Shown: positions 17,159-32,990 of the stretch, in pieces
Position numbering within the stretch: the first letter of the stretch is position 1
Layout of the letters: every line of letters starts with the position of its first letter
Source: Moniliella sp. 'wahieum'
Lineage: Eukaryota
DNA length: 44,167 nucleotides
Assembly (NCBI GenBank): GCA_003971905.1
Contig: RSEE01000075.1
Span: 310,001 to 354,167, forward strand
Direction: 5' to 3'
Position numbers and translations under genes: made by a program
Notes under the pieces: model-generated
The model's input: the letters and a program-made list of their open reading frames with translations, nothing else
Told to the model about the DNA's origin: nothing
Database searches by the model: none

Positions 17159-19468
17159 TTAGACCTCCACCTGGGATTGGGCCAACAAGGCCCGCTTTTG
17201 GTCCCGTACCTTCTTGGCCAAACGGGCAGCGGCCTCCAGAGGTGCCTCGGACGCGTCCTGGACAAAGTCCATCTTGGACATATTGTTGCGCAGCAACTGT
17301 GCCGGAGCAAAGTCCAGCTTGGCCCGGCGCGTCTCGAGCCAAGTCCGCTGCGCGTCAATCTTGTCCGCCAACGTTTTCAGCGTGGCTTCACCCTTAGTCT
17401 TGTGACCCTTGGCCTTGCCAGTCTTGGCCGCGTTGGCAGCGCGCAGCTTGCGCCGCAGCTGGATCACCACCGGCGTCGTCATCTCTGGGAAGGCAAGGCT
17501 GCGGGATTGGGTGGCAAGGAACTGGAGCAGAAGGAAGGACATCTCGTCGGCAATCAAATCGGCATAGATGGATGTCCGGACAAAGTTGACGGGCACGCGC
17601 AGCTGACTGTCCAGTTCCAGCTCCGAAGCGACGCGCCCTTGGTCTTGCGGGTAAACTCGGGGCATCGAGCATCTCAAGAAGGTAGGGAGCAAGCGGGATG
17701 TAGATCCCCGTCCGCTGCACCAGACGGAGCATAGCACGAATCAGATGGAACCGAAGCGGGAAGTAAGTGAGATGGGAATCAGGCGCATCGCACCCAACGC
17801 TACCTGAACCAAAGGGTAAATGAGCGGCTCCATGTTGCTGGCAGTGATATCGCCGTTGGGAAAGACGGATTGGTCGCAGGTCAAGGAAAGAACCGAGGCC
17901 CAGAAGTCAATGCCGTGGACAAACTGCCAGTTGTACACATTTTGGTACGACTCTTTGCTTTTGGTCTGAAGCGCATTGCGAAGCAGGATGGCAGCTGACG
18001 GATAAACCCAAAGGCCTGTTGGTACGAGGCGGATGGGTCGATGCGGAAGAGCTCGGCAGCCGAGTTCTTCATCAGGTTGATCTGCGGCAGATTGTGGATG
18101 GAAGTGCGCTTGGACACCTTGAGCAACGTGTGGTACACGCCCCGCAGGACCAAATCCCTCGCCTCGCCTTCCCCAGCCGCCACAACCGCGCGCAGGGCCA
18201 AGAAGGCCGACACCCGCGTCCGGTCCCGGCACTGGCCCAGACCGAGATGAGCATGCGGACGTAAGCCTTAACCACTTGGTTGCTCGGGTGTGCAACAATG
18301 TAGGGCACCAGCTTGATGCTCTGGTCCACCACGAACCGGAGCAGCGCGCCCGAATCCCTCTCCTCATCTTCATCCTCCTCGTCTGCCCGACCGTTGGGGA
18401 GGGTTTGGGCAAGGGCGGCAAGGTTGTTGACCAGCGACTTAACCGGTTGCTGGATTTGACGCGTCTTGGCGTTTTGGGTGACCCGGAAACGGAACAAACC
18501 ATCGGCCTCGGCGCTGCCAGGGAGGGGGAAGGCCTTGAAGGGGACGTAGTGCTTCAGCACCAGCGGCACATACGACATGGTTGTCTGAACAACCTTCTCA
18601 AATACCCGAGGGTTGTTCACGACAAAAATATTGCGGGCATCCTCTTCGGCCATGCGCTGTTGCCGCCGCGCAATCGCTTCTCGTTTGGCGGAACCGCTGC
18701 GCTCCAGCGCCGACTCAAGGTTCATGTCGTTGGTCCCATCATCGCCCGTGCGACTGGCAGCACGGAAGGCGAGAAGGAGCAGCCGGAGCGAACGTAGCGA
18801 ACGCGATTGGATGATGGCCGCTTGCCAGGTCCGCAGCTGGGCCATGGTCACCACATCCTTGGCCCGTTGTTCCTCCTCATCCTCCATCTCCTCGTCAGAG
18901 CTGGCCTCGTTCTGCGCAGGCTGGGCGGTCTCTGCATCCGGGTCAAACTCGAGCAGGTCCGCATCGTTTTTCTGAAGATACTTGAAGAACTCGGGATCTT
19001 TTTGCTCCAGAGCAGCCAGCTCTTCCTTCAGATCACCCTCTTCGTCTGTCCGAGAACAATTAGGTGGGGCATGTTAGTACTGCTTCGTGAGGACCAAGCT
19101 TTACCAGAAAAAAATGACACCACATACCCGACGCCTCTTCCAGCTCCTCCATCTCACCATCATCGTCATCGTCATCGTCCTCGTCCTCCGAGTCGGAAGC
19201 CAGGTCCTGGTTCAAAAAATCATCCACGCTCATTCCAGCAAACTTGTTCTCTCCGTCCGCTGGCACATCCGCGTCTTCAGCCACAGCCTCCTCGTCACTG
19301 TCGCCGTCCAGACCCGGTAGAGCGCGACGCTGACGCGGCGGACCGCGCCGCCTTCTTCTGGTTGCGCTGCTGCAGAATTTTCTTGGTGCGCTGCTGTTTC
19401 TTGCGCCCCTCGATCGCGCTGTCGAGTTTCTTGTGGGCAAACTTCTTGGTGCGCTTGCTTACGGCCAT
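17159..19468 (-). CDS. NOC2: Nucleolar complex protein 2 (60S biogenesis)
   Basis: MAVSKRTKKFAHKKLDSAIEGRKKQQ; MSVDDFL; intron 19127-19046 (GTATGT...TACTAAC...CAG); LEQKDPEFFKYLQKND; INLMKNSAAELF; YQQAFGFIRQL; YQNVYNWQFVH; PLIYPLVQV; SLAFPE; stop at 17159. Confidence 0.95.
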
Positions 19469-21515: not shown

Positions 21516-24173
21516 GGCGACAGCTGGGGGGAGTTGGGGCGGGGGGGAGAGTAAAGACGGTAGGGCAAAAGAGACAGAGAAAGAACGTAAAGGCCAGCTT
21601 CCGTCTTGGAGTGGTGGATAGGAGGGGGAGGGGGGCGGGAAGGCGAGAGGAGGTGGAGGAGAGGTGGTGGGGGTGTTGGATTGGGGAGAGGGGCTGGTAC
21701 TCAAGAGAGCCGCTAGCTGCTAACCATTTTGTTACTACTTCAATGGAGTGACTATAGGCAACGCACACACGCCGGGACTCGTGTGCTTTCATCAGCCATT
21801 AGTTGGACTATGCCGGACTGCCCCTCTGCCCTAGGGCGATCGGCGATGGTGGATGATGACTGCTTGCCGCTGGTGAAGATCTGGTATCGGGTGCGATGCG
21901 CCTCGCAGGCTGAACTTGGCGGCGGAGCGCTTGCAGGAGCGCTTGCAGACAACCCCATGGGATTCCGCATGTGTGCGCTCCACACATCATGGCTGTCGGG
22001 GGGGCTGGGAAACAGGTGGGCGCAGAGCCAGTGCGCGGGCATCGGCTTATCATGTGCTGGGCGTGTGGAGACTTAGGGGTGCTCACTGCCCCGTGCAGAG
22101 GGGAATTGCCCCACACTGTGCTGTGGCGCGTTACCTCCTGTGCGTTACTTCTTTGTGCGCCCTTTTGGTTGTCATGCATCATGCATCATGCAGTCTCCAT
22201 GTCACATGTCATGAGCACCCACATCTACCGGCATCACCAGTATGCTCTTATCCACTTCCTCCGCACGGATGATCATGACATCAGGGCTTCACAGATCTAT
22301 AGTAGGACTAGAGAACCACAAGGCCTATACGGCCCCCAGACTGGGCGGACCTTATATCGATGCTTTGTTTACCGTGCGTTGTGTGTATTGAAGGTCTGAG
22401 CCTTCGCTTCCCCCGTGTTGGTGGAGACAACCCACGGCCATTTTTCTCCCCTGAGGCACACCGTTCCATACTATGCCCCTTACCCCCCTGGTACCCCGTT
22501 CCATAGACCTCTCTCTTCGGTCTCGTCCACGCTGTTCATCGTTCACGCCAACAGAGACCTCCTCTCCAGCATGCAACATAGGTTAACATTCCATTATATT
22601 CAGGGTGGCGTAGCACGCCGTTCCGTTGTCAGGAGCAGGAAAGCGCGGAAGACCACTGGAGAGCAGGATGTTGATATTAGTGTATCGCATTGCACATGTG
22701 TTACACAGAAGCTAGATAATATTCCTACGCGCCAGGAAGGAACATTGCAATGAATGAATCCGAAGGTTCCGGGCTTGGGCTACCACTACACTAGTGTGGC
22801 GTCATAGAAAGCGTTGTGGCAGCCAGTAGCAAGAAAGCGTACCAGGCTGAAGCAGGAACACGCGACTGGTATGGCCCCACAGACAAGCAGGTAACCGAGA
22901 AAAGCGGTGCGCCTCAAAGCACATTTGTCGTTGTTGATCTGCCATGCGATGAAGATCGAGGCCCGGGTTGTCGACGGATGGCAGGCCCCTGATTCTCGGC
23001 TGCTGCTCCGTCTGGGAGCCCCGCCTAGTGCTTACTGTTCCATCTGGGATGCCCGCCTAGTGCTTCTTCTTGGCCAGGAGGGGACAACTTATAGTCACAC
23101 CGTTGCATCGTCGTCGTCGCGACCGCAAGCACCGTCTATGGCCCACAGCGCTGATCGATAACCGTGTCTGCCTTAGCAACCGTTCCTTCGGCCATCGTTC
23201 CATTACCCAATCGTGATCGTGAACCGCAGCCACCATTCCATCGTCCATGCGTCCTGATGAGCCACCGTAGGCACTGCCCCGCGTCGTTTCAGCCGTAGCC
23301 ACCGTTCCACTGTCCACCTTGATCCTTCACCGCACGATCCGTCGCCACCCGTCCACCGTGGGGAGTTGCGACCACAGCCCCTAAGCGGAGGGGGCTGCTC
23401 ATGTGGCAAGGCTACCACGTACGCACCGGCTTGGGTCGTAGTAACGTATCTGAAGCCTCTGGGGCTTAGGGACGGGTGGAGAGGTAGTGGAGGACAAACA
23501 CTGCCAGAGCTCGGGCTGAAGAGGGGCAGCTGATGACGTGGCTGTGGAAAGGAACCTGCGCGATAAGCTGGTACGGTACGGGGACTCGACGCGGCTGATT
23601 AAGGAAGGCTCGCGCGACTGGGTAATGCAGAAGCTGTGGGAGACAAGGATGGAAAAGACGAGAGGAGGCAACTAAATGAAGACAAGGTTGACTGTACCGA
23701 ACCAATTGGCTGGAATCGGGCAGGAGTTGAACAGAAAGGCGGGAAGGGACGCGAATGGAAGATGGTGAAAGGTCCTCCTGACCCGGTACAGAAGTTAGAT
23801 CCGAAAAGGGAAAAGTGTTGGAGTGTGGTGGCATGTGGCACCACTTGGTGTGATGGCTGGATCGGCCATGTCGCTGGCAAGCGGAACTGGCTATAGAGTT
23901 GCGCGACTCGCGCGCTCCGGATTGGTTACCGTCGCGCCCTCGTTCCCCTCCTTCCTCTTCTCCTGTTGCATTGAAGGTTGGACTAGCGTCAGGAGCTTAC
24001 AAGAAGCTATCTCTGACTGTTCCCACCTGCACAGTGCAATCGTCCTTAGCTTGGTAGCGTAGCTACTTCTCAGTTAACGGACAACCGCGGTTCTGGGCTC
24101 TCACTGCAGTGGTGTGACCGATTCATCGCGCTCACCCATTGATCGCCCGGTCTAGTGCTTCACCCTAGCCCCA

Positions 24174-24205
24174 ATCTACAAATTCATAACGCAGACCCCC
24201 TTTTT
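24174..24205 (+). repeat. 32-bp direct repeat B, copy 1 (ATCTACAAATTCATAACGCAGACCCCCTTTTT); candidate Helitron 5' end A|TC
   Basis: Identical to 27781-27812. Confidence 0.9.
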
Positions 24206-27200
24206 GAATTCATATCATTGACAGAGCTTAAGGCTGGGACAGGGGGAACGCTACGTCTAAACCGAACCGTTCATCTTGCGGGGGTTACTTGGAAGCGCCA
24301 CCAAGATTAAGGGACCAGGGGGATCGCCAGGATATCAGGACCCTCCGGCTCACGCCATCCGGTCCCGTACCCTAGGAAGCGCGTGTGGACACGGAGGAAC
24401 GTGGTTGACATACGAGCGAGGAACCATTTCCACTGAGACTTAGTAGCCAACTCCTTCCAATGCGCAAACAACTTGCCCGCCGTCTTGGTGCCGTAGTATC
24501 CTCGCGTCGTCAAAACCAGGGGGAAAAACGGTTCTTGAGTGCGTCCCTGGTACTTGGCGTTCTTGTCGCATTCTGCTTGTTCAAGCAGCCGAAGCAGTTC
24601 CTTCTCCCGGCGTTCCAAAGGCGACGCAGTGCTCTCATGCACCACCCGCCGGTACGCGCTCTGCGCCTCCTGCGATCCCGTGTCGCGCAGCGTGTGTCTA
24701 CCTCCATTCCGGTTCCTCCCAGTGCTCCGGGCCCCATCACGGTAATCGGTGCGCTGTGCCTTCCGTCCGCGCCTCGTCCCATCCTCTTCCTCCACCATAG
24801 GTTCGTTGTGGACGTGGGTGTCGGGGATGGAGCGGAGGAGCTGGAGAATGGGCTCCCGCACTGCCTCATGCAACGCACCAAACTTGGCCTGGGTGCGGGT
24901 GCAGGACATGATGTGTTCCAGCGAGGACATGACGCCGCACTTGCACATGCTGCGCGTGGTGCGGCACAGCGTGCGGAGCTGGAGACCAACCTGGACCTGC
25001 TGGTCAGAGAGCTTGAGGTACGGGACGGATGGAATAGCGGAGAGCCAGTTGTGGCTCAGCGGGTTGCTGTGCTCAACCACATGACGACCATCGGCAGCGT
25101 CCAGCTTCTGGAGCAGCTCCTGTCGACTTTGCTCCCACATCTCGCGGCAGCGCTGGCGTTGCTTCGTAAATGCGTTGGCCCTTGCCGTTTGCGGTCCCGA
25201 ACGGTCAACATAAGTGGTAATAAGGTAGTCGTTGACCTCGTTGGCCGCGGCACGGGCGTGGGGCGCAATATACGAGTAAGCAAGCGGGCTGCCACATCCT
25301 CCCAGCCGAAGAGGCAGGCTCATGAGCATGTCGAAGTGGTCGTCCTTGGGATCCTCGTCGCCCCGGATCCGTCTGAACTCCGTACAGATGAAGGCATCAA
25401 TCTCGGCCAGCACGTCGTCTAGCTCTCCTTCCATCTGCATGGTGCGGAGCAGGTGGCGCAGCTTGGTCTGAGTGCTGAGCCGCCATAGTAAGGGCGTCCC
25501 TGGCGGGTGATGCCATCAAATTAGGCATGTTCTCCCTCAGACTGGCCAGTTGGGCCCGGAGCCACGATCGACGACAGTCTACCCCTCCCACAAGTGCCCA
25601 GAACCTGCAGACCATCCACCCGAATCTGGTCCCGGTCCCGCTCGACACACTTGCGCAGGTTGAGCTTGAGGCCTGACGCGTCGTCGTCTTCCAAAATCTC
25701 CGCGGCTAGGCCGGTAATGCCTGGCCCTGGACCGAAGATCGTAATGTCGTCCAGGTATGCCATCACCAGGTGCCCCGGCGGCAGGTCCTGTTCCAGTTTC
25801 TCCAGCGGGGCCCGCACTGCGATGGAGAAGAAAAGGGGGGAGGGGGTCGCCCTGCCGTACGCCCTCTGCCGACAGGACGTTGGTCTCATTTCCGCCCGAC
25901 GCGACCCAGAGCTGGGTGGGGGAACCATAGATCCATCGGCCCAACGTGAGGAGATGGGGGGCGTAGGATGGAGCGTTGGCGAGTGTGCGAACGGCGCACA
26001 GTGTTGAAGGCGTTGGTTAAAGTCGAGCATGGCGACGTGGCTGAAGTCGCCCAGTTCCGCATCGTTTTTCCCCGCTGGCGATGTCATGCGTCGACCATCC
26101 GTACGATAGGCTACACCCCGTTTTGCGATGCTACTCCAAGGGGTGGGAGAAGCCAGCTGTTGGGGGCGATCGCTCGAGCGATGGCCTTGGCGCACAGGCG
26201 TAGATCACTCGCTCCACAGGCGATGGGGCGGATGCCTCCCGATGCCTTCTCCAGGGGGTGAGGCGGGAGGCCAACAGGAGCTCGCGTCCTGGGGCGGTGC
26301 CGTGGAAATACTCTTGGTGAGGGCGGTGAGAAAGGCGACGAAGCGCTTGCATTCAAGGGCCGTTCGTAGAGGGGCTGGGTCCACCCGGATAGACCTGCCC
26401 CAACGTCGATTCTGAACGTGGCAATCAAGGCAACAAAGTCGATTTCGTCCAAGTCCACCACGATACGGTCACTGTCCGTCGTGTCGGTGAGGGTGGTGCC
26501 CGGCGGTACCACGCGGCCTGTGTGGGTGGGACGAGTGCGGGTGGTGGTGTTGCCAAAGGCTGTGCCCGGGCCGAGGCTGAAGGGGTTCGCCTCTCCAACG
26601 GGATGGAGCTTTTCCAGGCTTGCCTGGTCTCGGGGGTAGAGGGGCAATGGTGGATTGGCCGACGAGGGTACTTGCTGCGCGCTGAGGCAGCCCTCCCGAA
26701 TGAGGCGGTCGGCCTTGGTGACTGGGTCGAGTGCCTCGCGCGTTGAGAAGTCGGGGGGCGGAGGGAGTTGCCAGGCGCTGTTGGGGTACGTCCCGATGAG
26801 TTGTTGTCCTTGTTGTGGTAGCGGAGTACTTCCTTAGGCACCGCTAGAATATCCATCAGGTGTGCTGACGAGGGCTCCTGCAAGTAAGCGTCCGCCAAAC
26901 GGCCGAGCATCTGGAGGAAAGGGCGCTTCAGGTGTGGCGGTTCTTGCGTGTGCCGGGCGCTCGGCCAGGGCGGTCAAACGGGAAGGAGGTCGGCCCCGTG
27001 TCGGTCGAGGGGTTGCGCGGTCGTCTGGTGGCGGTGGTGGTGGGCGCGGCCGCGGCGGCGGGGGGGGCGTGTCGCGGGGCGCGGGGGGGTTGAGGGGTCG
27101 GGGTGGCGGGGCGGGGGGGGGGCTGTCTGCGCGGGGGCGCGGCGCGGGCGTGGGGTAGTGGGGCGTGGGGTTTCGGCGCCGTAGCCATTGGTTGGCTGTT

Positions 27201-27700
27201 CGGAGCCCAGCCGGGGGCTGCGGCGCCGGGGGCGAGTGGGGGTTGGGAGGAGGGGCGTGCCTTGACCCGGTACTTCGGCACCGGGTTCCTGCTTCGGAGT
27301 TGCGGGGGCAGCGGGCCCTGTTGTGGCCAGGGTTCGTGCAAAGGGAGCAATGATACTCGCGCTTGGGGGTGGGTCGGTGGCGGGGGGGCGGGGGGGTGGT
27401 GGGTACGGGGACGGGGTGGTGGGATGGGGTGGGGTGGCGGCGGGCGGGGCGGCGTGTCACGTGCCAGGACCCCAGGTGGCAGCAAGCCGGCGCCGGTCAC
27501 GTGGTCAGGCATCTGCTCAGGTTGAGTGAATGTCTCATCGACCGCACTTGGTGCTCTGGGGCCAAAGGGCGGGTGTGGGGGACGGGGCGGGAGCGGGGGG
27601 CGGGGCTCCCGGGGAGGGGGCGTCTCGGGCGCCAGGACCTCCTCGGGGGGATCCGCCATACGGGTGCGCAACACCATGGGCGGTGCCGGGGTGGTGGTCC
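24206..27700 (-). mobile_element. Non-LTR retrotransposon with restriction-like endonuclease (CRE/Cnl1/MoTeR-like), single ORF 27677-24307 broken by indels
   Basis: Pro-rich N-terminus with CCHC knuckle CSLCTNPGHNRARC; RT motifs GAGLSGW, GGIRPIACG, GVRQGDPL, VMAYLDDI, SGLKLNLRKC, LPLRLGGCG; C-terminal CKCG..HIMSC, NEP, RTD, KNAKY, FFPLVLTTRG (RLE). No APE domain. About 100-nt 3' UTR ends at the A5 of repeat B. Confidence 0.92.
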
Positions 27701-27896
27701 TTTACGTAAAATTACACAAGCATGCCACCTGGCACGTTTCACCCGGCGCGTTCCAGGCGGGCGCAGCCAGGCGGATGCGCATCTACAAATTCATAACGCA
27801 GACCCCCTTTTTACTTTACGTAAAATTACACAAGCATGCCACCTGGCACGTTTCACCCGGCGCGTTCCAGGCGGGCGCAGCCAGGCGGATGCGCAT
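27700..27896 (+). repeat. 83-bp direct repeat A (27700-27782 and 27814-27896) separated by repeat B copy 2; period 114 bp
   Basis: CTTTACGTAAAATTACACAAGCATGCC...CCAGGCGGATGCGCAT occurs twice, identical. Confidence 0.92.
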
Positions 27897-28074
27897 GGGT
27901 GATAAAATTCCGCCCGAGGCGTAGTGGTGAATACTATTCCGCTCTCAGCGTGGAACGGTGGACCGGTGGCTACGGTGGCGACGGGGGAACGGTGGCTAAG
28001 GTGGCGACGGTGCACCAAGCATCAAGCTGGGGCGAAGCCCCAGCTGACCGGGCCGTAGGCCCGTGGTCTTCTAG
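27782..28074 (+). mobile_element. Candidate non-autonomous mini-Helitron (293 bp)
   Basis: 5' A|TCTACAAAT...; internal 9-bp minisatellite ACGGTGGCN (~27953-28013); GNA-loop hairpins AGCTGGGGC-GAA-GCCCCAGCT (28025-28045) and CGGGCC-GTA-GGCCCG (28049-28063); 7 nt later CTAG|T. This matches the TC...hairpin-CTRR, A|T insertion hallmarks. Confidence 0.7.
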
Positions 28075-28335
28075 TCTTTCAAATGGGGGTGTAGAAAGGG
28101 AGATATGACAAAAGGGGTTGGCTGCCGCAGGCGCAACGGAGAAAGATAAAGTAAGAGGTGACGCGGGGACAGTCGTCGCAAAGATGCCGGAAACTTGGTG
28201 GTGTCATTTAGGCCAACCGACTTCGACTTAAGCGGGGGGCGACTCTTGAAGCTTGACACGCGGATGCGTGGCCGCTCGGGCCACCGTACATCGTTTAACG
28301 TTTAACTGACCACCTCGGAGCAACGTACTCAGTCT

Positions 28336-31300
28336 TTTTGAACATTGTTAAGCGCTGGGAACCGACGTCCAGCCCTCTTCGATAATTGATCTCGGCTTGT
28401 TTCGGAGATCAGATCGATCAACGTCAACCATCTCGACCATCAAACGGTCGAGCAAACCATTCATGTCGACCACATGGAGGGCGCTGCTTCTGCCGATGAA
28501 CTTGTCCAGGCTGTGGTGCGTGTCATCCTGCCGCGCATGTGTGAATGGGGCTGACGGGAAGGTGCCTTCCCCCCCCCGAACGACTTGGAGCAGCATGTCC
28601 GTTCGGCCCTGCGTGAGTTGGACCCGGGTTCACCGTTGTCTCAAGTGATGCCTGTTGTCGCCGCGCGCGTGGTGACCTCGTCTCTAGTCAAGAACGGCCT
28701 GCTTCCGGTGCCGGCGGCGATGGATGTTCAGCTCGGGGTCTGCGGTGGGGCGTGGGACCCATCCACTGTCCGAGCCTACCCGCTCTTGGCTCTCGGCCGT
28801 TTCCAACCACAGGGCGATCTGGCCAAAGCGCATCTCGCCCTCTGTGGCCACATGTTCCCTGCACCCCCGACGTGCGATGGAGAGGAACGAAATACCAGGC
28901 TTCGTCCTCTTCTGGGTGCTGCGCCCGTCCAAGACGCTATTTCCCATGGTGTCCACTCCATTCTTCAGTTGCTGCGTTCGGCTGCCTCAGACTTGCACAC
29001 AGCGGTCACGCCTGACCGGCCTGATTCTTGCCCGTCTCCCATTCCCCGGGATGGCTCGTCATCCGCGGTACAATCTCCACCCCTAGATAATGATTCTACC
29101 CACCTTTCAAATATACCGCTCTGCCCTTCCGATGTTTCCGTTCACCACTCCGAGGATCTGCAGGCTACCGGTGATGTCCAGCAACGGCTGCACGAACTTC
29201 AGCAAGGGAAATGCCCGTGGACGAGTATGCGCGCAAGTTCATGGACCTCCTATTTGATGTAGAGGCCTATCGCGACAGTCCCGAAATGGCGATGACCCTA
29301 TTCACGCGCGTCTTTCCCCGGAATTGCGCCAAGCCTACTTTTATGTGAACCACTCTTTTCAATTCAAGTCCCTGGATGAACTAGTCGAGTGGGCGGTTCG
29401 GGCAGAGTCATCGCAGGACGTCCTTCCCGCGACGGATGATCGCCCAGTAGATGTGCGCGAGGCTTCTCCTGCTGGCTCCATTTTGTCACCGAGCTATGAA
29501 TCCTGCGTGACATCCGATGACGGATCCGACCCGACAGACTTGGATGGAGCAGGACTCCTTGAACGCATTGACAGGCGTCATCTCCCCATCAGCAGAAGAA
29601 TACGTACGCCGACGTGGATTCAATTTGTGCATGCGCTGTGGGAAATCTGGTCACTGGCGTGACGCCTGTCCTCTGCGACTATTCGAGTGGGCGGATCAGG
29701 CGGAGTCATCGCAGCACGTCTTTCCCGCGATCAATAATCGCTCAGTAGATGTGCGTGAGGCTTCTCCTGGCTCCATTTTGTCACCGAGCTATGAAGCCTG
29801 CGTGTCTTCCGATGACGGGTCCGACCCGACAGATCTGAATGGAGCAGGACGCCGTCGTCGCATTAGCAGGCGTTATCGCCCCATCAGCAATGAAGAGTAC
29901 GCCCGCCGACGTGGATTCAATTTGTGCATGCGCTGCGGAGAATCGGGCCACTGGCGTGACACCTGTCCTCTGCGCCAACTAAGTGGTTTGCGGCGTGGGC
30001 GGCGAAACAGTGGGTTTCCGTCCTGAAGAAGATGGGACCAGTGGAGCAGCCAGGGCTATACTCATCCTAGGGCGGATCGGGTCAGGCGCGCCATTAAGGG
30101 CATGCGCCCCAAGGCGCCCAATTATAGGGGTAAGGGCCGCACTGTGGATGTGTATCGGGTCCACCTACTTCGTCCCTGATGGTCGATACGTTTGTCAAAT
30201 CGCCCAGAGTCACCACCCCCACCGCCCCTGTGGCCTGATGCGCCCATTGCGCGTTTCTTCTTGTCCCTGGTCCAGTTTCAGTATGGACCACTTCGTGCCC
30301 CTACCGGAAAGAGGGATTGGAACTTGGGTGGGGCGAGGTGCTCGACATGATGCGGATGATGGTCGACGGCAGTCCAAGATAGTGCTCATCCCGTGCAGCC
30401 CGAGTGATACTGCGACTCCCTTGTTTGAGCCGCTGACGCAGAAAGTCTTCTACGTGTTGGACCTGCTTACCGAGCGACCGAGGACCTCTGTTCACCTGTG
30501 TCCAGATGAGTGGCTTTTGTGACTGGCATTTCATCCGTCAACGTTTGACCACTACCCAGCATCCCCATGCCGGATGGGCAGTCTGTGCGGTTTGTCGATT
30601 TGATCAAGATCTATATCTGCACCATTTTACCAATTGCACGCAGTCCGATTAGCCACTTCTTCCATGCGGCTTCTTTTGATCTCACCACCTCCCGTTCCAC
30701 TTTCAGTATCCATGTTCGACATCATACATGGATCCCAGTCGTTCAACCGGGAGACCCCATGGAGACCGCACTTACGCCAGGGAAGGAGCATCACTTGGTC
30801 CGAATCAAGGCGACCAGCTCGGCCAGGAGTCTTTGGAGAAGATCGGCCTGAAGCGTTACGCGAATCGTATGCTTGTCAATCATGTTCTCCTCTTGGACGA
30901 GGGAGATTAGGTAGTGGTCGACAAGGGGAGGGCGCCTTTCACTCGGGCAAAAGTGACTCTTTGGGGATTGAAGTGCGTGGGCTCTTTCAAGGTTAAGTTG
31001 AAGGCGCACGGGTGTCTTTTCTCATTGATCATCCTCCCTGCATTAGAATCCATCCCATATAAGTGTCTCTGCCTTCGAACAGTACCGTTTCGACGCGGTT
31101 CTCGACGCTGTTCCGTTTGAGTGATGAGCCAGTGCCTCCTCCGTCCACGGTTGAGCGAGGAGAGTAGTCCTGGCTGTTTTATCAGATCTTTGACTCGCGT
31201 CTCCCCCATTATCAGCTCCAGTACTTTTCTTATTTTTTTGCTTCCCTGATTTGGATATTGAGGAATGACTGCGTCTCACCCCAACACATGAGGGAAATGA

Positions 31301-31713: not shown

Positions 31714-32990
31714 TTTTGAACATTGTTAAGCGCCGGTAATCGACGTCCAGCCCTCTTCAATTCATTCCGGCTTTTTTTCGGAGGAAGCTAGGAAGGTCAA
31801 TCATCTCGACCATCGAACGGTCGTCGAGCAAGTCATCCACGTCGAGCACCATGGAGGGCGCTGCTTCTGCCGATGAACTTGTCCAGGCTGTGGTGCGTGC
31901 CGTCCTGCCGCGCATGTGTGAATGGGGCTGACGGGAAGGTGCCTTTGCCCCCCCCCCCCCCAGAACGACTTGGAGCAGCATGTCCGTTCGGCCCTGCGTG
32001 AGTTGGACCCGGGCTCACCGTTGTCCCAAGTGATGCCTGCTGTCGCCGCGCGCGTGGTGACCTCGTCTCTGGTCAAGAACGGCCTGCTTCCGGTGCCGGC
32101 GGCGATGGATGTTCAGCTCGGGGTCTGCAGTGGGGCGTGGGACCCATCCACTGTCCGAGCCTACCCGCTCTTGGCTCTCGGCCGTTTCCAACCACAGGGC
32201 GATCTGGCCAAAGCGCATCTCGCCCTCTGTGGCCACATGTTCCCTGCACCCCCGACGTGCGATGGAGAGGAACGAAATACCAGGCTTCGTCCTCTTCTGG
32301 TGCTGCACCCGTCCAAGACGCTATTTCCCATGGTGTCCACTCCATTCTTCAGTTGCTGCGTCCGGCTGACTCAGACTTGCACACAGCGGTCTTAGTGCCT
32401 AAACTCCCTGACCCTTCCTCGTCGTCCATTCCCCGGGATGGCTCGACAACTGCAGTACAATCCCCCCCCCTCAATAATGATCTTACCCCCATCCAACTAT
32501 GCCGCCCTGCCCCTCGGTTCAAACGCAGCACGCTCAACTTGATGATGAGAGAAGGGACAAGCAACATCTCTCTGCATGTGGACCAGGGTTAGATTCTCGC
32601 AGTAAGATGCAAGGCAAACGTCCTTCTGAAGGCAAGGCGCGAGAGGGAGCTTCAAAGCGCATGATGCTACCTAAGAAACAGCACGACGTAGTGCCTTCCC
32701 CACTGCCTTCGAACCGTGCCGCAGGTATATTGGAAGGTAAGGTGCTCCTCAAGATTCTCCAGAGTCGTCGTGAGGAAACTTCGCGGGTGATACGCCTACT
32801 TGGCACGCTGGACCGACTTTCCTAGCAGTGAAGACGAGTGGGTACCCGCCGCTGCGTTTCTTCACCTCGTGCCTGCTGTTCTCGACTTTCACAGCAGTCA
32901 TCCAGAAGCCCCATGTTCCAATCGTCGCCGTCTATTAATACGCGTTGCCTCCTCCAAGGGCAAAGGAAGAGGGGATAAGGTCACGGGTGG
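31714..32990 (+). mobile_element. Degenerate Ty3/gypsy copy 2: gag 5' region joined to chromodomain and polypurine tract
   Basis: 31714-32490 repeats 28336-29105 (near-identical in 31970-32390); then chromodomain-like ARWTDFPSSEDEWVPAAAFLHLVPAVLDFHSSHPEAP, PPT AAAGGAAGAGGGGATAA, then GTCACGGG (degenerate TGTCAC LTR start). Confidence 0.8.

Follow-up and report, generated by a model that had tools for sequence, protein, structure and literature searches.

A decayed R2-superfamily retrotransposon between perfectly duplicated sequences in Moniliella sp. 'wahieum'

In this study we describe a retrotransposon of the kind without long terminal repeats (non-LTR), or long interspersed nuclear element (LINE), that lies in reversed orientation on contig RSEE01000075.1 of Moniliella sp. 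'wahieum' (assembly GCA_003971905.1). The analysis covered a stretch of 44,167 nt (positions 310,001 to 354,167 of the forward strand), which is referred to as the window and numbered from its first base. The locus is one dead copy of a known fungal kind of retrotransposon whose junctions are unusually informative. The element, which almost certainly is of the restriction-like endonuclease (RLE) type and a member of the R2 superfamily, is framed by a 32-bp repeat, B, and an 83-bp repeat, A, each present in two perfect copies, such that the plus strand reads B-LINE-A-B-A. We tentatively explain this arrangement, with a probability of about 40%, by one integration event, in which 30-32 bp (B) would have been duplicated as target-site duplication (TSD) and the first copy of A would have been brought in as upstream target sequence on the LINE RNA.

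An initial annotation of this DNA had placed the LINE within the duplicated 5' end of a mini-Helitron and had offered two readings, namely a LINE that targets the Helitron terminus, or a TSD of about 32 bp with target-derived A carried at the element's 5' end. The latter is the better fit of the two, as it needs only one event and has a precedent reported for R2 (PMC3774820).

Arrangement of the repeats and the insert

On the plus strand the left flank (...CCCCA) is followed by the first copy of B (B1), the 3,494-bp insert (24206-27699), the first copy of A (A1), the second copy of B (B2), a single base A at position 27813, the second copy of A (A2) and a tail of 178 bp. The features are listed here with their strand where one applies (ORF, open reading frame; UTR, untranslated region; TRF, Tandem Repeats Finder).

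24174..24205, no strand: B1, left copy of the 32-bp repeat; adjoins the LINE 3' end and ends in GACCCCCTTTTT
24206..27699, minus strand: almost certainly an RLE-type non-LTR retrotransposon (R2 superfamily, Cnl1/MoTeR-like), full length but dead, 3,494 bp; recognised from ORF pieces in four frames and by tblastn
24206..24306, minus strand: LINE 3' UTR, 101 nt; in LINE sense it ends in ...GATATGAATTC, followed by the A5 run of B; the last ORF terminates with a stop codon at 24307-24309
24499..24945, minus strand: CCHC zinc knuckle and restriction-like endonuclease (C191, C193, H201, C205, H216, E238-P239, R255-x-D257)
25590..26450, minus strand: reverse-transcriptase domain, interrupted by frameshifts and a single stop codon; placed by an RVT_1 match and by alignment of the RVT_1 regions of relatives
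27675..27699, minus strand: LINE 5' end, with 22 nt (27678-27699) and then the first ATG (27675-27677); ORF 26928-27701
27700..27782, no strand: A1, 83-bp copy joined to the LINE 5' end; imperfect palindrome
27781..27812, no strand: B2, right copy of the 32-bp repeat, in uninterrupted context (B, then the base a, then A)
27814..27896, no strand: A2, 83-bp copy in uninterrupted context
27897..28074, plus strand: tail with minisatellite, two GC-rich hairpins, CTAG and then T; a Helitron-like 3' signature of unproven meaning
27955-28010: minisatellite with a 26-bp unit, 2.2 copies (TRF)
28025-28045: hairpin with a 9-bp stem
28049-28063: hairpin CGGGCC-GTA-GGCCCG with a 6-bp stem and a 3-nt loop, followed by a 7-nt spacer and CTAG
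28071-28074: CTAG, followed by T at 28075

All positions of B, A and the tail were confirmed, and the order B-LINE-A-B-A-tail given in the initial annotation is real. The two copies of B (24174-24205 and 27781-27812) are identical at 32 of 32 positions and those of A (27700-27782 and 27814-27896) at 83 of 83, which is far beyond what chance would produce; further copies of A or B do not occur in the 44-kb window. The left flanks of the B copies are unlike, as had been stated before, with CCCCA preceding B1 and GCGCA preceding B2. The bases AT are common to the end of A1 and the start of B2, so that the length of B is 30-32 bp. At the uninterrupted junction the T5 run that ends B2 (27808-27812) is followed by the A at 27813 and then by A2, whereas at the interrupted junction the corresponding T5 run (24201-24205) directly meets the LINE 3' end. 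Both junctions can be read in the sequence, in agreement with the earlier proposal that the LINE interrupts the B/A junction at the T5 run. We take B1 to be one of the copies of the putative TSD. About 26 positions of repeat A pair with each other in an imperfect palindrome, the stem of which ends 2 nt short of the right boundary of A.

The insert is an R2-superfamily LINE

In a library of 1.84 billion proteins, 314 relatives of the last ORF of the LINE (402 aa, 24310-25515) were found at E<=1e-3, and 11 of these reach E<=1e-30. The named relatives, with identities of about 30-34%, come from Tilletia caries (34% identity) and Kwoniella shandongensis and are uncharacterised proteins. A central RVT_1 domain scores above cut-off in 13 of the 14 relatives scanned; in the window copy (25521-26204) it is matched at E=2.3e-4 with 21.4 bits, under the cut-off of 29.6. 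An APE-type (exonuclease-endonuclease-phosphatase) domain was found in none of these 14 relatives and in none of the four ORF pieces of the window, and N-terminal C2H2 fingers are present in three of the relatives. In an alignment of 30 sequences the pattern C-x-C...H-x3-C, followed by (R)H(E), E-P and R-T-D, is invariant, the invariant residues being C191, C193, H201, C205, H216, E238, P239 and D257.

Comparison of the LINE C-terminus with solved structures by sequence yielded nothing useful, either with the single sequence or with a profile of 30 sequences, so that the class of the element was resolved by fold search only. An AlphaFold (AF2) model of this region reached a pLDDT of 79.4 and a pTM of 0.80, and all seven Foldseek matches at E<=1e-3 are R2 retrotransposon proteins, the next match being at E=0.49. 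The R2 matches have TM-scores of 0.44-0.52 on the query and have the thumb, the linker, the CCHC knuckle and the RLE fold in common with it. Thus, the central reverse transcriptase (RT), the lack of an APE-type domain, the CCHC knuckle with the RHE..EP..RTD motif and the R2 fold matches all bear out the earlier identification of the reversed insert as an RLE-type non-LTR retrotransposon.

The element is present in full length, with only 22 nt between its 5' boundary and the ATG, and the alignment leaves room for the N-terminus, as ten full-length relatives align by tblastn from about residue 247 at position 27021 down to 24367. On the plus strand the N-terminal third of the LINE (26900-27650) is extremely G-rich, with a GC content of 0.70, a GC skew of +0.31, many G runs and short tandem repeats; it encodes a proline-rich region and, in one frame (ORF 26834-27496), a CCHC knuckle, HCSLCTNPGHNRARC. 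No frame is open from the ATG (27677) through to 27021.

The coding capacity of the copy is not intact. Relatives aligned by tblastn reveal at least four frame changes (near 26830, 25990, 25830 and 25590-25491) and one in-frame stop near 26110, and the second acidic residue of the endonuclease, nearly invariant in the family (alignment column 461), is missing. Some of the frameshifts fall in runs of G or C and may be due to assembly error.

Other LINE copies were not found in the window, where tblastn gave self-matches only. A 27-nt match at 18946, considered as a second copy, was rejected as the region is the Noc2 gene. Among bacterial and archaeal genomes the LINE protein matched one stretch of a Bradyrhizobium liaoningense contig (6001-6246; query residues 215-320, 34% identity), which we take to be chance (E 8e-4, relative to the candidate stretches only).

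Proposed integration in a single event

The explanation we prefer starts from an original sequence with the order flank-B-a-A-tail, the plus strand of which would be nicked after the T5 run of B by a full-length RLE-type LINE of the Cnl1/MoTeR-like kind of basidiomycetes, and the freed ...CCCCCTTTTT-3' end would prime cDNA synthesis by target-primed reverse transcription. A second nick in the minus strand, 30-32 bp to the left, would then lead to the duplication of B as a TSD. The LINE RNA would carry at its 5' end 83 nt of upstream target, that is A, its source copy having occupied the same B/A junction elsewhere, within a further copy of this sequence. Finally, the end of the cDNA (...GCGCAT) would pair through a 2-nt AT microhomology with the single-stranded 3' overhang and not with the duplex A, to give LINE-A-B-A.

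A single event is favoured because two perfect duplications touch one insertion. The layout is exactly TSD-LINE(3'->5')-A-TSD-A, and the LINE 3' end adjoins the T5/A5 run, as expected for T-run priming. The AT overlap of A1 and B2 and the full length of the LINE also speak for it. With only 22 nt in front of the ATG the LINE was probably transcribed from outside itself, which would place the source copy at the same B/A junction. If A1 was brought in on the RNA, the source copy was located at the same junction, and this would imply site specificity. The repeats, the class, orientation, ends and decay of the LINE, the T5 junction and the AT overlap are shown by the data; we infer the order of the events, the carriage of A on the RNA and, with it, the site specificity of the element.

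Target specificity is reported for most RLE elements, the 3' boundaries being precise, the 5' boundaries variable and the TSDs 0 to 20 bp long (PMC4640811), and for the CRE and R4 elements all known members are stated to generate TSDs (PMC3636483). R2 RNAs have been described to bear up to 36 nt of upstream 28S sequence on their 5' end (PMC3774820).

However, several points weigh against this explanation. Site specificity and the 5' extension of the RNA are deduced from one LINE copy rather than observed. An RNA with 83 nt of target should anneal to it and leave a clean junction and no duplication, as has been proposed for R2. The extension described for R2 reaches 36 nt, which is shorter than the 83 nt required here. 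Rfam detected neither a ribozyme nor another RNA family at or near A. Furthermore, AATTCATAAC in B (24181-24190) and the last bases of the LINE, AATTCATATC on the plus strand (24207-24216), match at 9 of 10 positions, a degree of likeness reached by 102 of 5000 shuffles of B. This likeness fits a B that is derived from the LINE rather than from the target; it could represent target mimicry, shared origin or chance. Finally, the LINE has accumulated at least four frameshifts and a stop, yet the 115 bp of flanking repeat are unchanged. A decayed LINE between perfect repeats implies either that the source copy was already defective or that assembly errors occurred in homopolymer runs.

RNA genes, the kind of target used by CRE, NeSL, Utopia and R2, are absent: Rfam returned no match around the locus at E<=1 and none window-wide at gathering scores. 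Likewise, no tRNAs were found and no hepatitis delta virus (HDV)-like ribozyme was detected. If other copies share the B/A site and the 83-nt leader, the few targets known for site-specific RLE LINEs would be joined by a new one, and the locus would, in addition, illustrate in nature how a LINE RNA can bring along a long piece of upstream target. This bears on the joining of the LINE 5' end, the least understood step of LINE integration.

Alternative explanations

The layout can also be described as a tandem repeat with a period of 114 bp that carries the LINE inside its first unit. It might therefore have resulted from two unrelated events, an older tandem duplication, (B-a-A)x2, and a later insertion of the LINE at the first B/A junction, with loss of the base a and without a TSD. 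Palindromes favour slippage duplications, and the palindromic stem of A stops 2 nt short of the boundary of the duplication; a microhomology-mediated duplication would likewise agree with the AT overlap where the units meet, and R2-group insertions with small deletions in place of TSDs are reported to be possible (PMC3636483). However, a rare local duplication and a LINE insertion would have to coincide within 230 bp. The supposedly older duplication is still perfect (115/115), whereas the younger LINE would have gained at least four frameshifts and a stop, and other tandem copies of the unit were not found in the window. We consider this sequence of events unlikely.

According to a second alternative, A and the reverse complement of B belong to the LINE itself, as its 5' UTR hairpin and its 3' terminus, and a deleted derivative of 116 bp (A-T-B') stands head-to-tail with the full copy. 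Such a pair could arise by a template jump of the RT between RNAs or by a Cnl1-style insertion beside a resident copy; no Helitron would be involved, and the tail and the left flank would represent the interrupted host sequence. Without A the leader of the LINE is only 22 nt long, and AATTCATA is common to B and the adjacent LINE 3' end. R2 reportedly yields short non-autonomous derivatives by internal deletion. CNL1 has been described to insert into its own copies in arrays (PMC12810828). The hairpin of A is stable in LINE sense (-38.7 kcal/mol, z = -3.2, with 1 of 200 shuffles as good) compared to the opposite sense (-28.7 kcal/mol, z = -1.35), but this asymmetry is weak, as it rests on four G-U pairs versus two potential ones on the other strand.

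The flanks also bear on this alternative. About 0.9 kb to the left of B1 lies a degenerate minisatellite of GGAACGGTGGCTACGG-like units (23171-23359, minus strand; best segment 23261-23317), which is related, in inverted orientation, to the minisatellite of the tail (27950-28010) with a score of 47, compared to a mean of 20.7 and a maximum of 31 in 200 shuffles. Minisatellite relatives outside the supposed Helitron are expected if the tail and the left flank are one host sequence, but not if the tail is transposon-borne. On the other hand, the end point of the deletion that generated the derivative would need to coincide with the first base of the A5 run. A simpler account of this run is that it marks the genuine LINE 3' end, as a poly(A)/T-run priming site. 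Moreover, a derivative of 116 nt with only 32 nt of 3' end would be very short for an RT that recognises its 3' UTR. This origin of the repeats therefore appears quite improbable.

A third alternative, which overlaps with the single integration event preferred here, takes up the mini-Helitron of the initial annotation: the 294-bp unit 27781-28074 would be a multicopy non-autonomous Helitron to the 5' end of which the LINE homes, and the whole composite, from the TC at 24175 to the CTAG at 28074, would be movable by the RepHel enzyme of a Helitron. Helitrons are defined by a 5' TC, a 3' CTRR, a subterminal hairpin and insertion into AT without a TSD (PMC4289320). All the structural elements claimed for the mini-Helitron are indeed present, while its identity is unproven. 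A TC follows an A at 24175-24176 and at 27783-27784, the composite is flanked by an A at 24174 and a T at 28075, and the hairpin, the 7-nt spacer and the CTAG followed by T agree with the rules of HelSearch (PMC4289320). The DNA fold of the tail has a z of -2.84. A LINE that targets a DNA transposon also has a precedent in Tx1 and Tx1d (PMC6719617).

However, with HelSearch-like rules (PMC4289320) one 3' signature was found in the window when 0.84 were expected, and 57% of 300 shuffles contained at least one; looser rules gave five, compared to 2.76 expected per window. Chance accounts less readily for the position of the single rule-conforming site, as a signature on the correct strand 178 bp downstream of A2 has a chance of 0.003 within 300 nt, or of about 0.04 if generous freedom is allowed. 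The TC start is weak as a hallmark because nothing but the left edge of repeat B defines it, and if B is a TSD, it would simply mark where the second nick fell. The inverted minisatellite relatives outside the supposed element count against a Helitron as well. Neither a Rep-helicase (RepHel) domain, among 100 window ORFs, nor a second copy of the unit in the window was found. A search of the protein database with a 94-aa ORF that spans A2, the tail, the 3' end and the flank, used as a proxy for further copies of the unit, gave no matches, which is a weak test because gene prediction seldom includes such ORFs. In bacterial and archaeal genomes, a collection without fungi that is silent on copy number, a 27-nt stretch from A had no matches.

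We therefore regard it as doubtful that the host sequence is a Helitron, and both the Helitron label and the notion of a parasite of a parasite are unproven. That the LINE is specific for such a Helitron seems distinctly improbable. The parts of the literature covered by our search describe no Helitron-specific LINE; if the target is a true Helitron, this would, so far as that search shows, be the first LINE specific for a rolling-circle transposon. In its fullest and very improbable form, a promoterless RLE LINE family of an Ustilaginomycotina-like fungus would home to one position in a small non-autonomous Helitron, about 32 bp from the Helitron 5' end, would be transcribed from within the Helitron, each new copy thereby gaining an 83-nt leader, and, lying between a TC start and a CTAG end, would also travel as rolling-circle cargo. 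Such a LINE would both parasitise a DNA transposon and be carried by it.

A TSD that comprises the whole unit of 114-116 bp was rejected, as the LINE would then be flanked by B-a-A to its left and to its right, unlike the observed order.

Relation to known elements

The LINE resembles Cnl1 of Cryptococcus and the MoTeR/FoTeR elements in having a single long protein with RT and restriction-enzyme-like (REL) endonuclease and no APE-type domain, in a fungal host (basidiomycete or other), and one of its relatives is from Kwoniella, a genus close to Cryptococcus. CNL1 has been placed in the R2 superfamily next to MoTeR, and its reported size of about 3.5 kb compares with the 3,494 bp found here (PMC12810828). 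Similarly, the order CCHC-RH(D/E)-E-R(A/T)D is that of the REL motif of MoTeR1 (PMC12857005). Insertions of CNL1 into a reporter gene are described to have TSDs of 0-13 bp that contain CACCCCT, a motif similar to the telomere seed, whereas the other insertions of CNL1 are into arrays of its own copies close to telomeres (PMC12810828). In Moniliella, telomere-like GACCCCCT (24194-24205) ends 4-5 nt before the T-run nick and resembles the CACCCCT of CNL1 TSDs and of Cryptococcus telomere seeds (PMC12810828). By this resemblance, the LINE may have used a telomere-like seed, with no recognition of a Helitron at all. In contrast to CNL1, the copy is interstitial in a gene-rich region and not part of a subtelomeric array, and its putative TSD is 30-32 bp instead of 0-13 bp (PMC12810828). 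By size and motif order the element is a candidate member of the Cnl1/MoTeR group.

TSDs of unusual length occur in other LINEs: that of SLACS is 49 bp, and the TSD of R9, a LINE of ribosomal DNA (rDNA), is reportedly called 'exceptionally long' in the title of a paper. An extra target-derived block at the 5' end is, to our knowledge, not a described feature of CRE, SLACS, CZAR or R9. The locus further differs from these four in that its target is not an RNA gene, as judged by Rfam and tRNA scans. With CRE, SLACS and CZAR it has in common that an RLE LINE is associated with a TSD, here a putative one (PMC3636483).

The thumb, the linker, the CCHC knuckle and the RLE fold are shared with R2, and the target-primed reverse transcription proposed here, with an RNA that would carry upstream target, is similar to that of R2 co-transcripts (PMC3774820). 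However, there is no match to R2 chains at the sequence level, no HDV-like ribozyme and no rDNA nearby in the window, and the target sequence thought to be carried is 83 nt long and duplicated and would not have been used for a seamless junction.

If the host unit were a Helitron, the LINE would have the same lifestyle as Tx1L/Tx1D of Xenopus, in which a LINE homes to one site of a DNA transposon (PMC6719617). The Tx1 endonuclease is, however, of the APE type and its host a cut-and-paste transposon, whereas the element described here is of the RLE type and the transposon nature of its host is unproven. The host unit itself resembles fungal non-autonomous Helitrons, such as the HELPO families of Pleurotus, in its 5' TC, 3' CTAG, subterminal hairpin and A/T flanks (PMC4289320). 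Unlike in Helitrons of the HELPO type, its 5' end is set only by a repeat boundary, and no further copy or autonomous partner was found in the window.

Surroundings of the locus

The window is gene-rich, with ORFs that match an amino-acid kinase, the ribosomal proteins L17 and S3, Vps36/EAP30, Noc2, a glycosyl hydrolase, a HAD hydrolase and an OPT transporter. Among named sequences, that of Tilletiaria anomala matches the Noc2 exon best (66% identity), followed by Jaminaea, Microstroma and Parajaminaea, which indicates an Ustilaginomycotina-like basidiomycete as host.

To the left of the LINE a 9-mer, CTAGTGCTT, occurs three times within 1.2 kb (23003-23065 and 24152-24161), two of the copies being part of a 31-bp tandem pair and one being located 13 bp before B1. 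The CTAG/T end was also considered as another copy of CTAGTGCTT and rejected, as the local alignment score of 16 was reached by 448 of 500 shuffles.

To the right, two direct repeats of about 770 bp (28336-29101 and 31714-32488), which are 78-98% identical and 3.38 kb apart, start 261 bp from the CTAG end. A 235-aa ORF in this repeat has no recognisable relatives, and the best score of 0.84 in a protein-feature atlas was uninformative. The pair could have arisen by segmental duplication or could represent a non-autonomous retroelement of LTR-like kind. The interval between the two repeats contains ORFs with CCHC zinc knuckles, as well as an internal tandem duplication of 297 bp (29380-29677 and 29678-29974).

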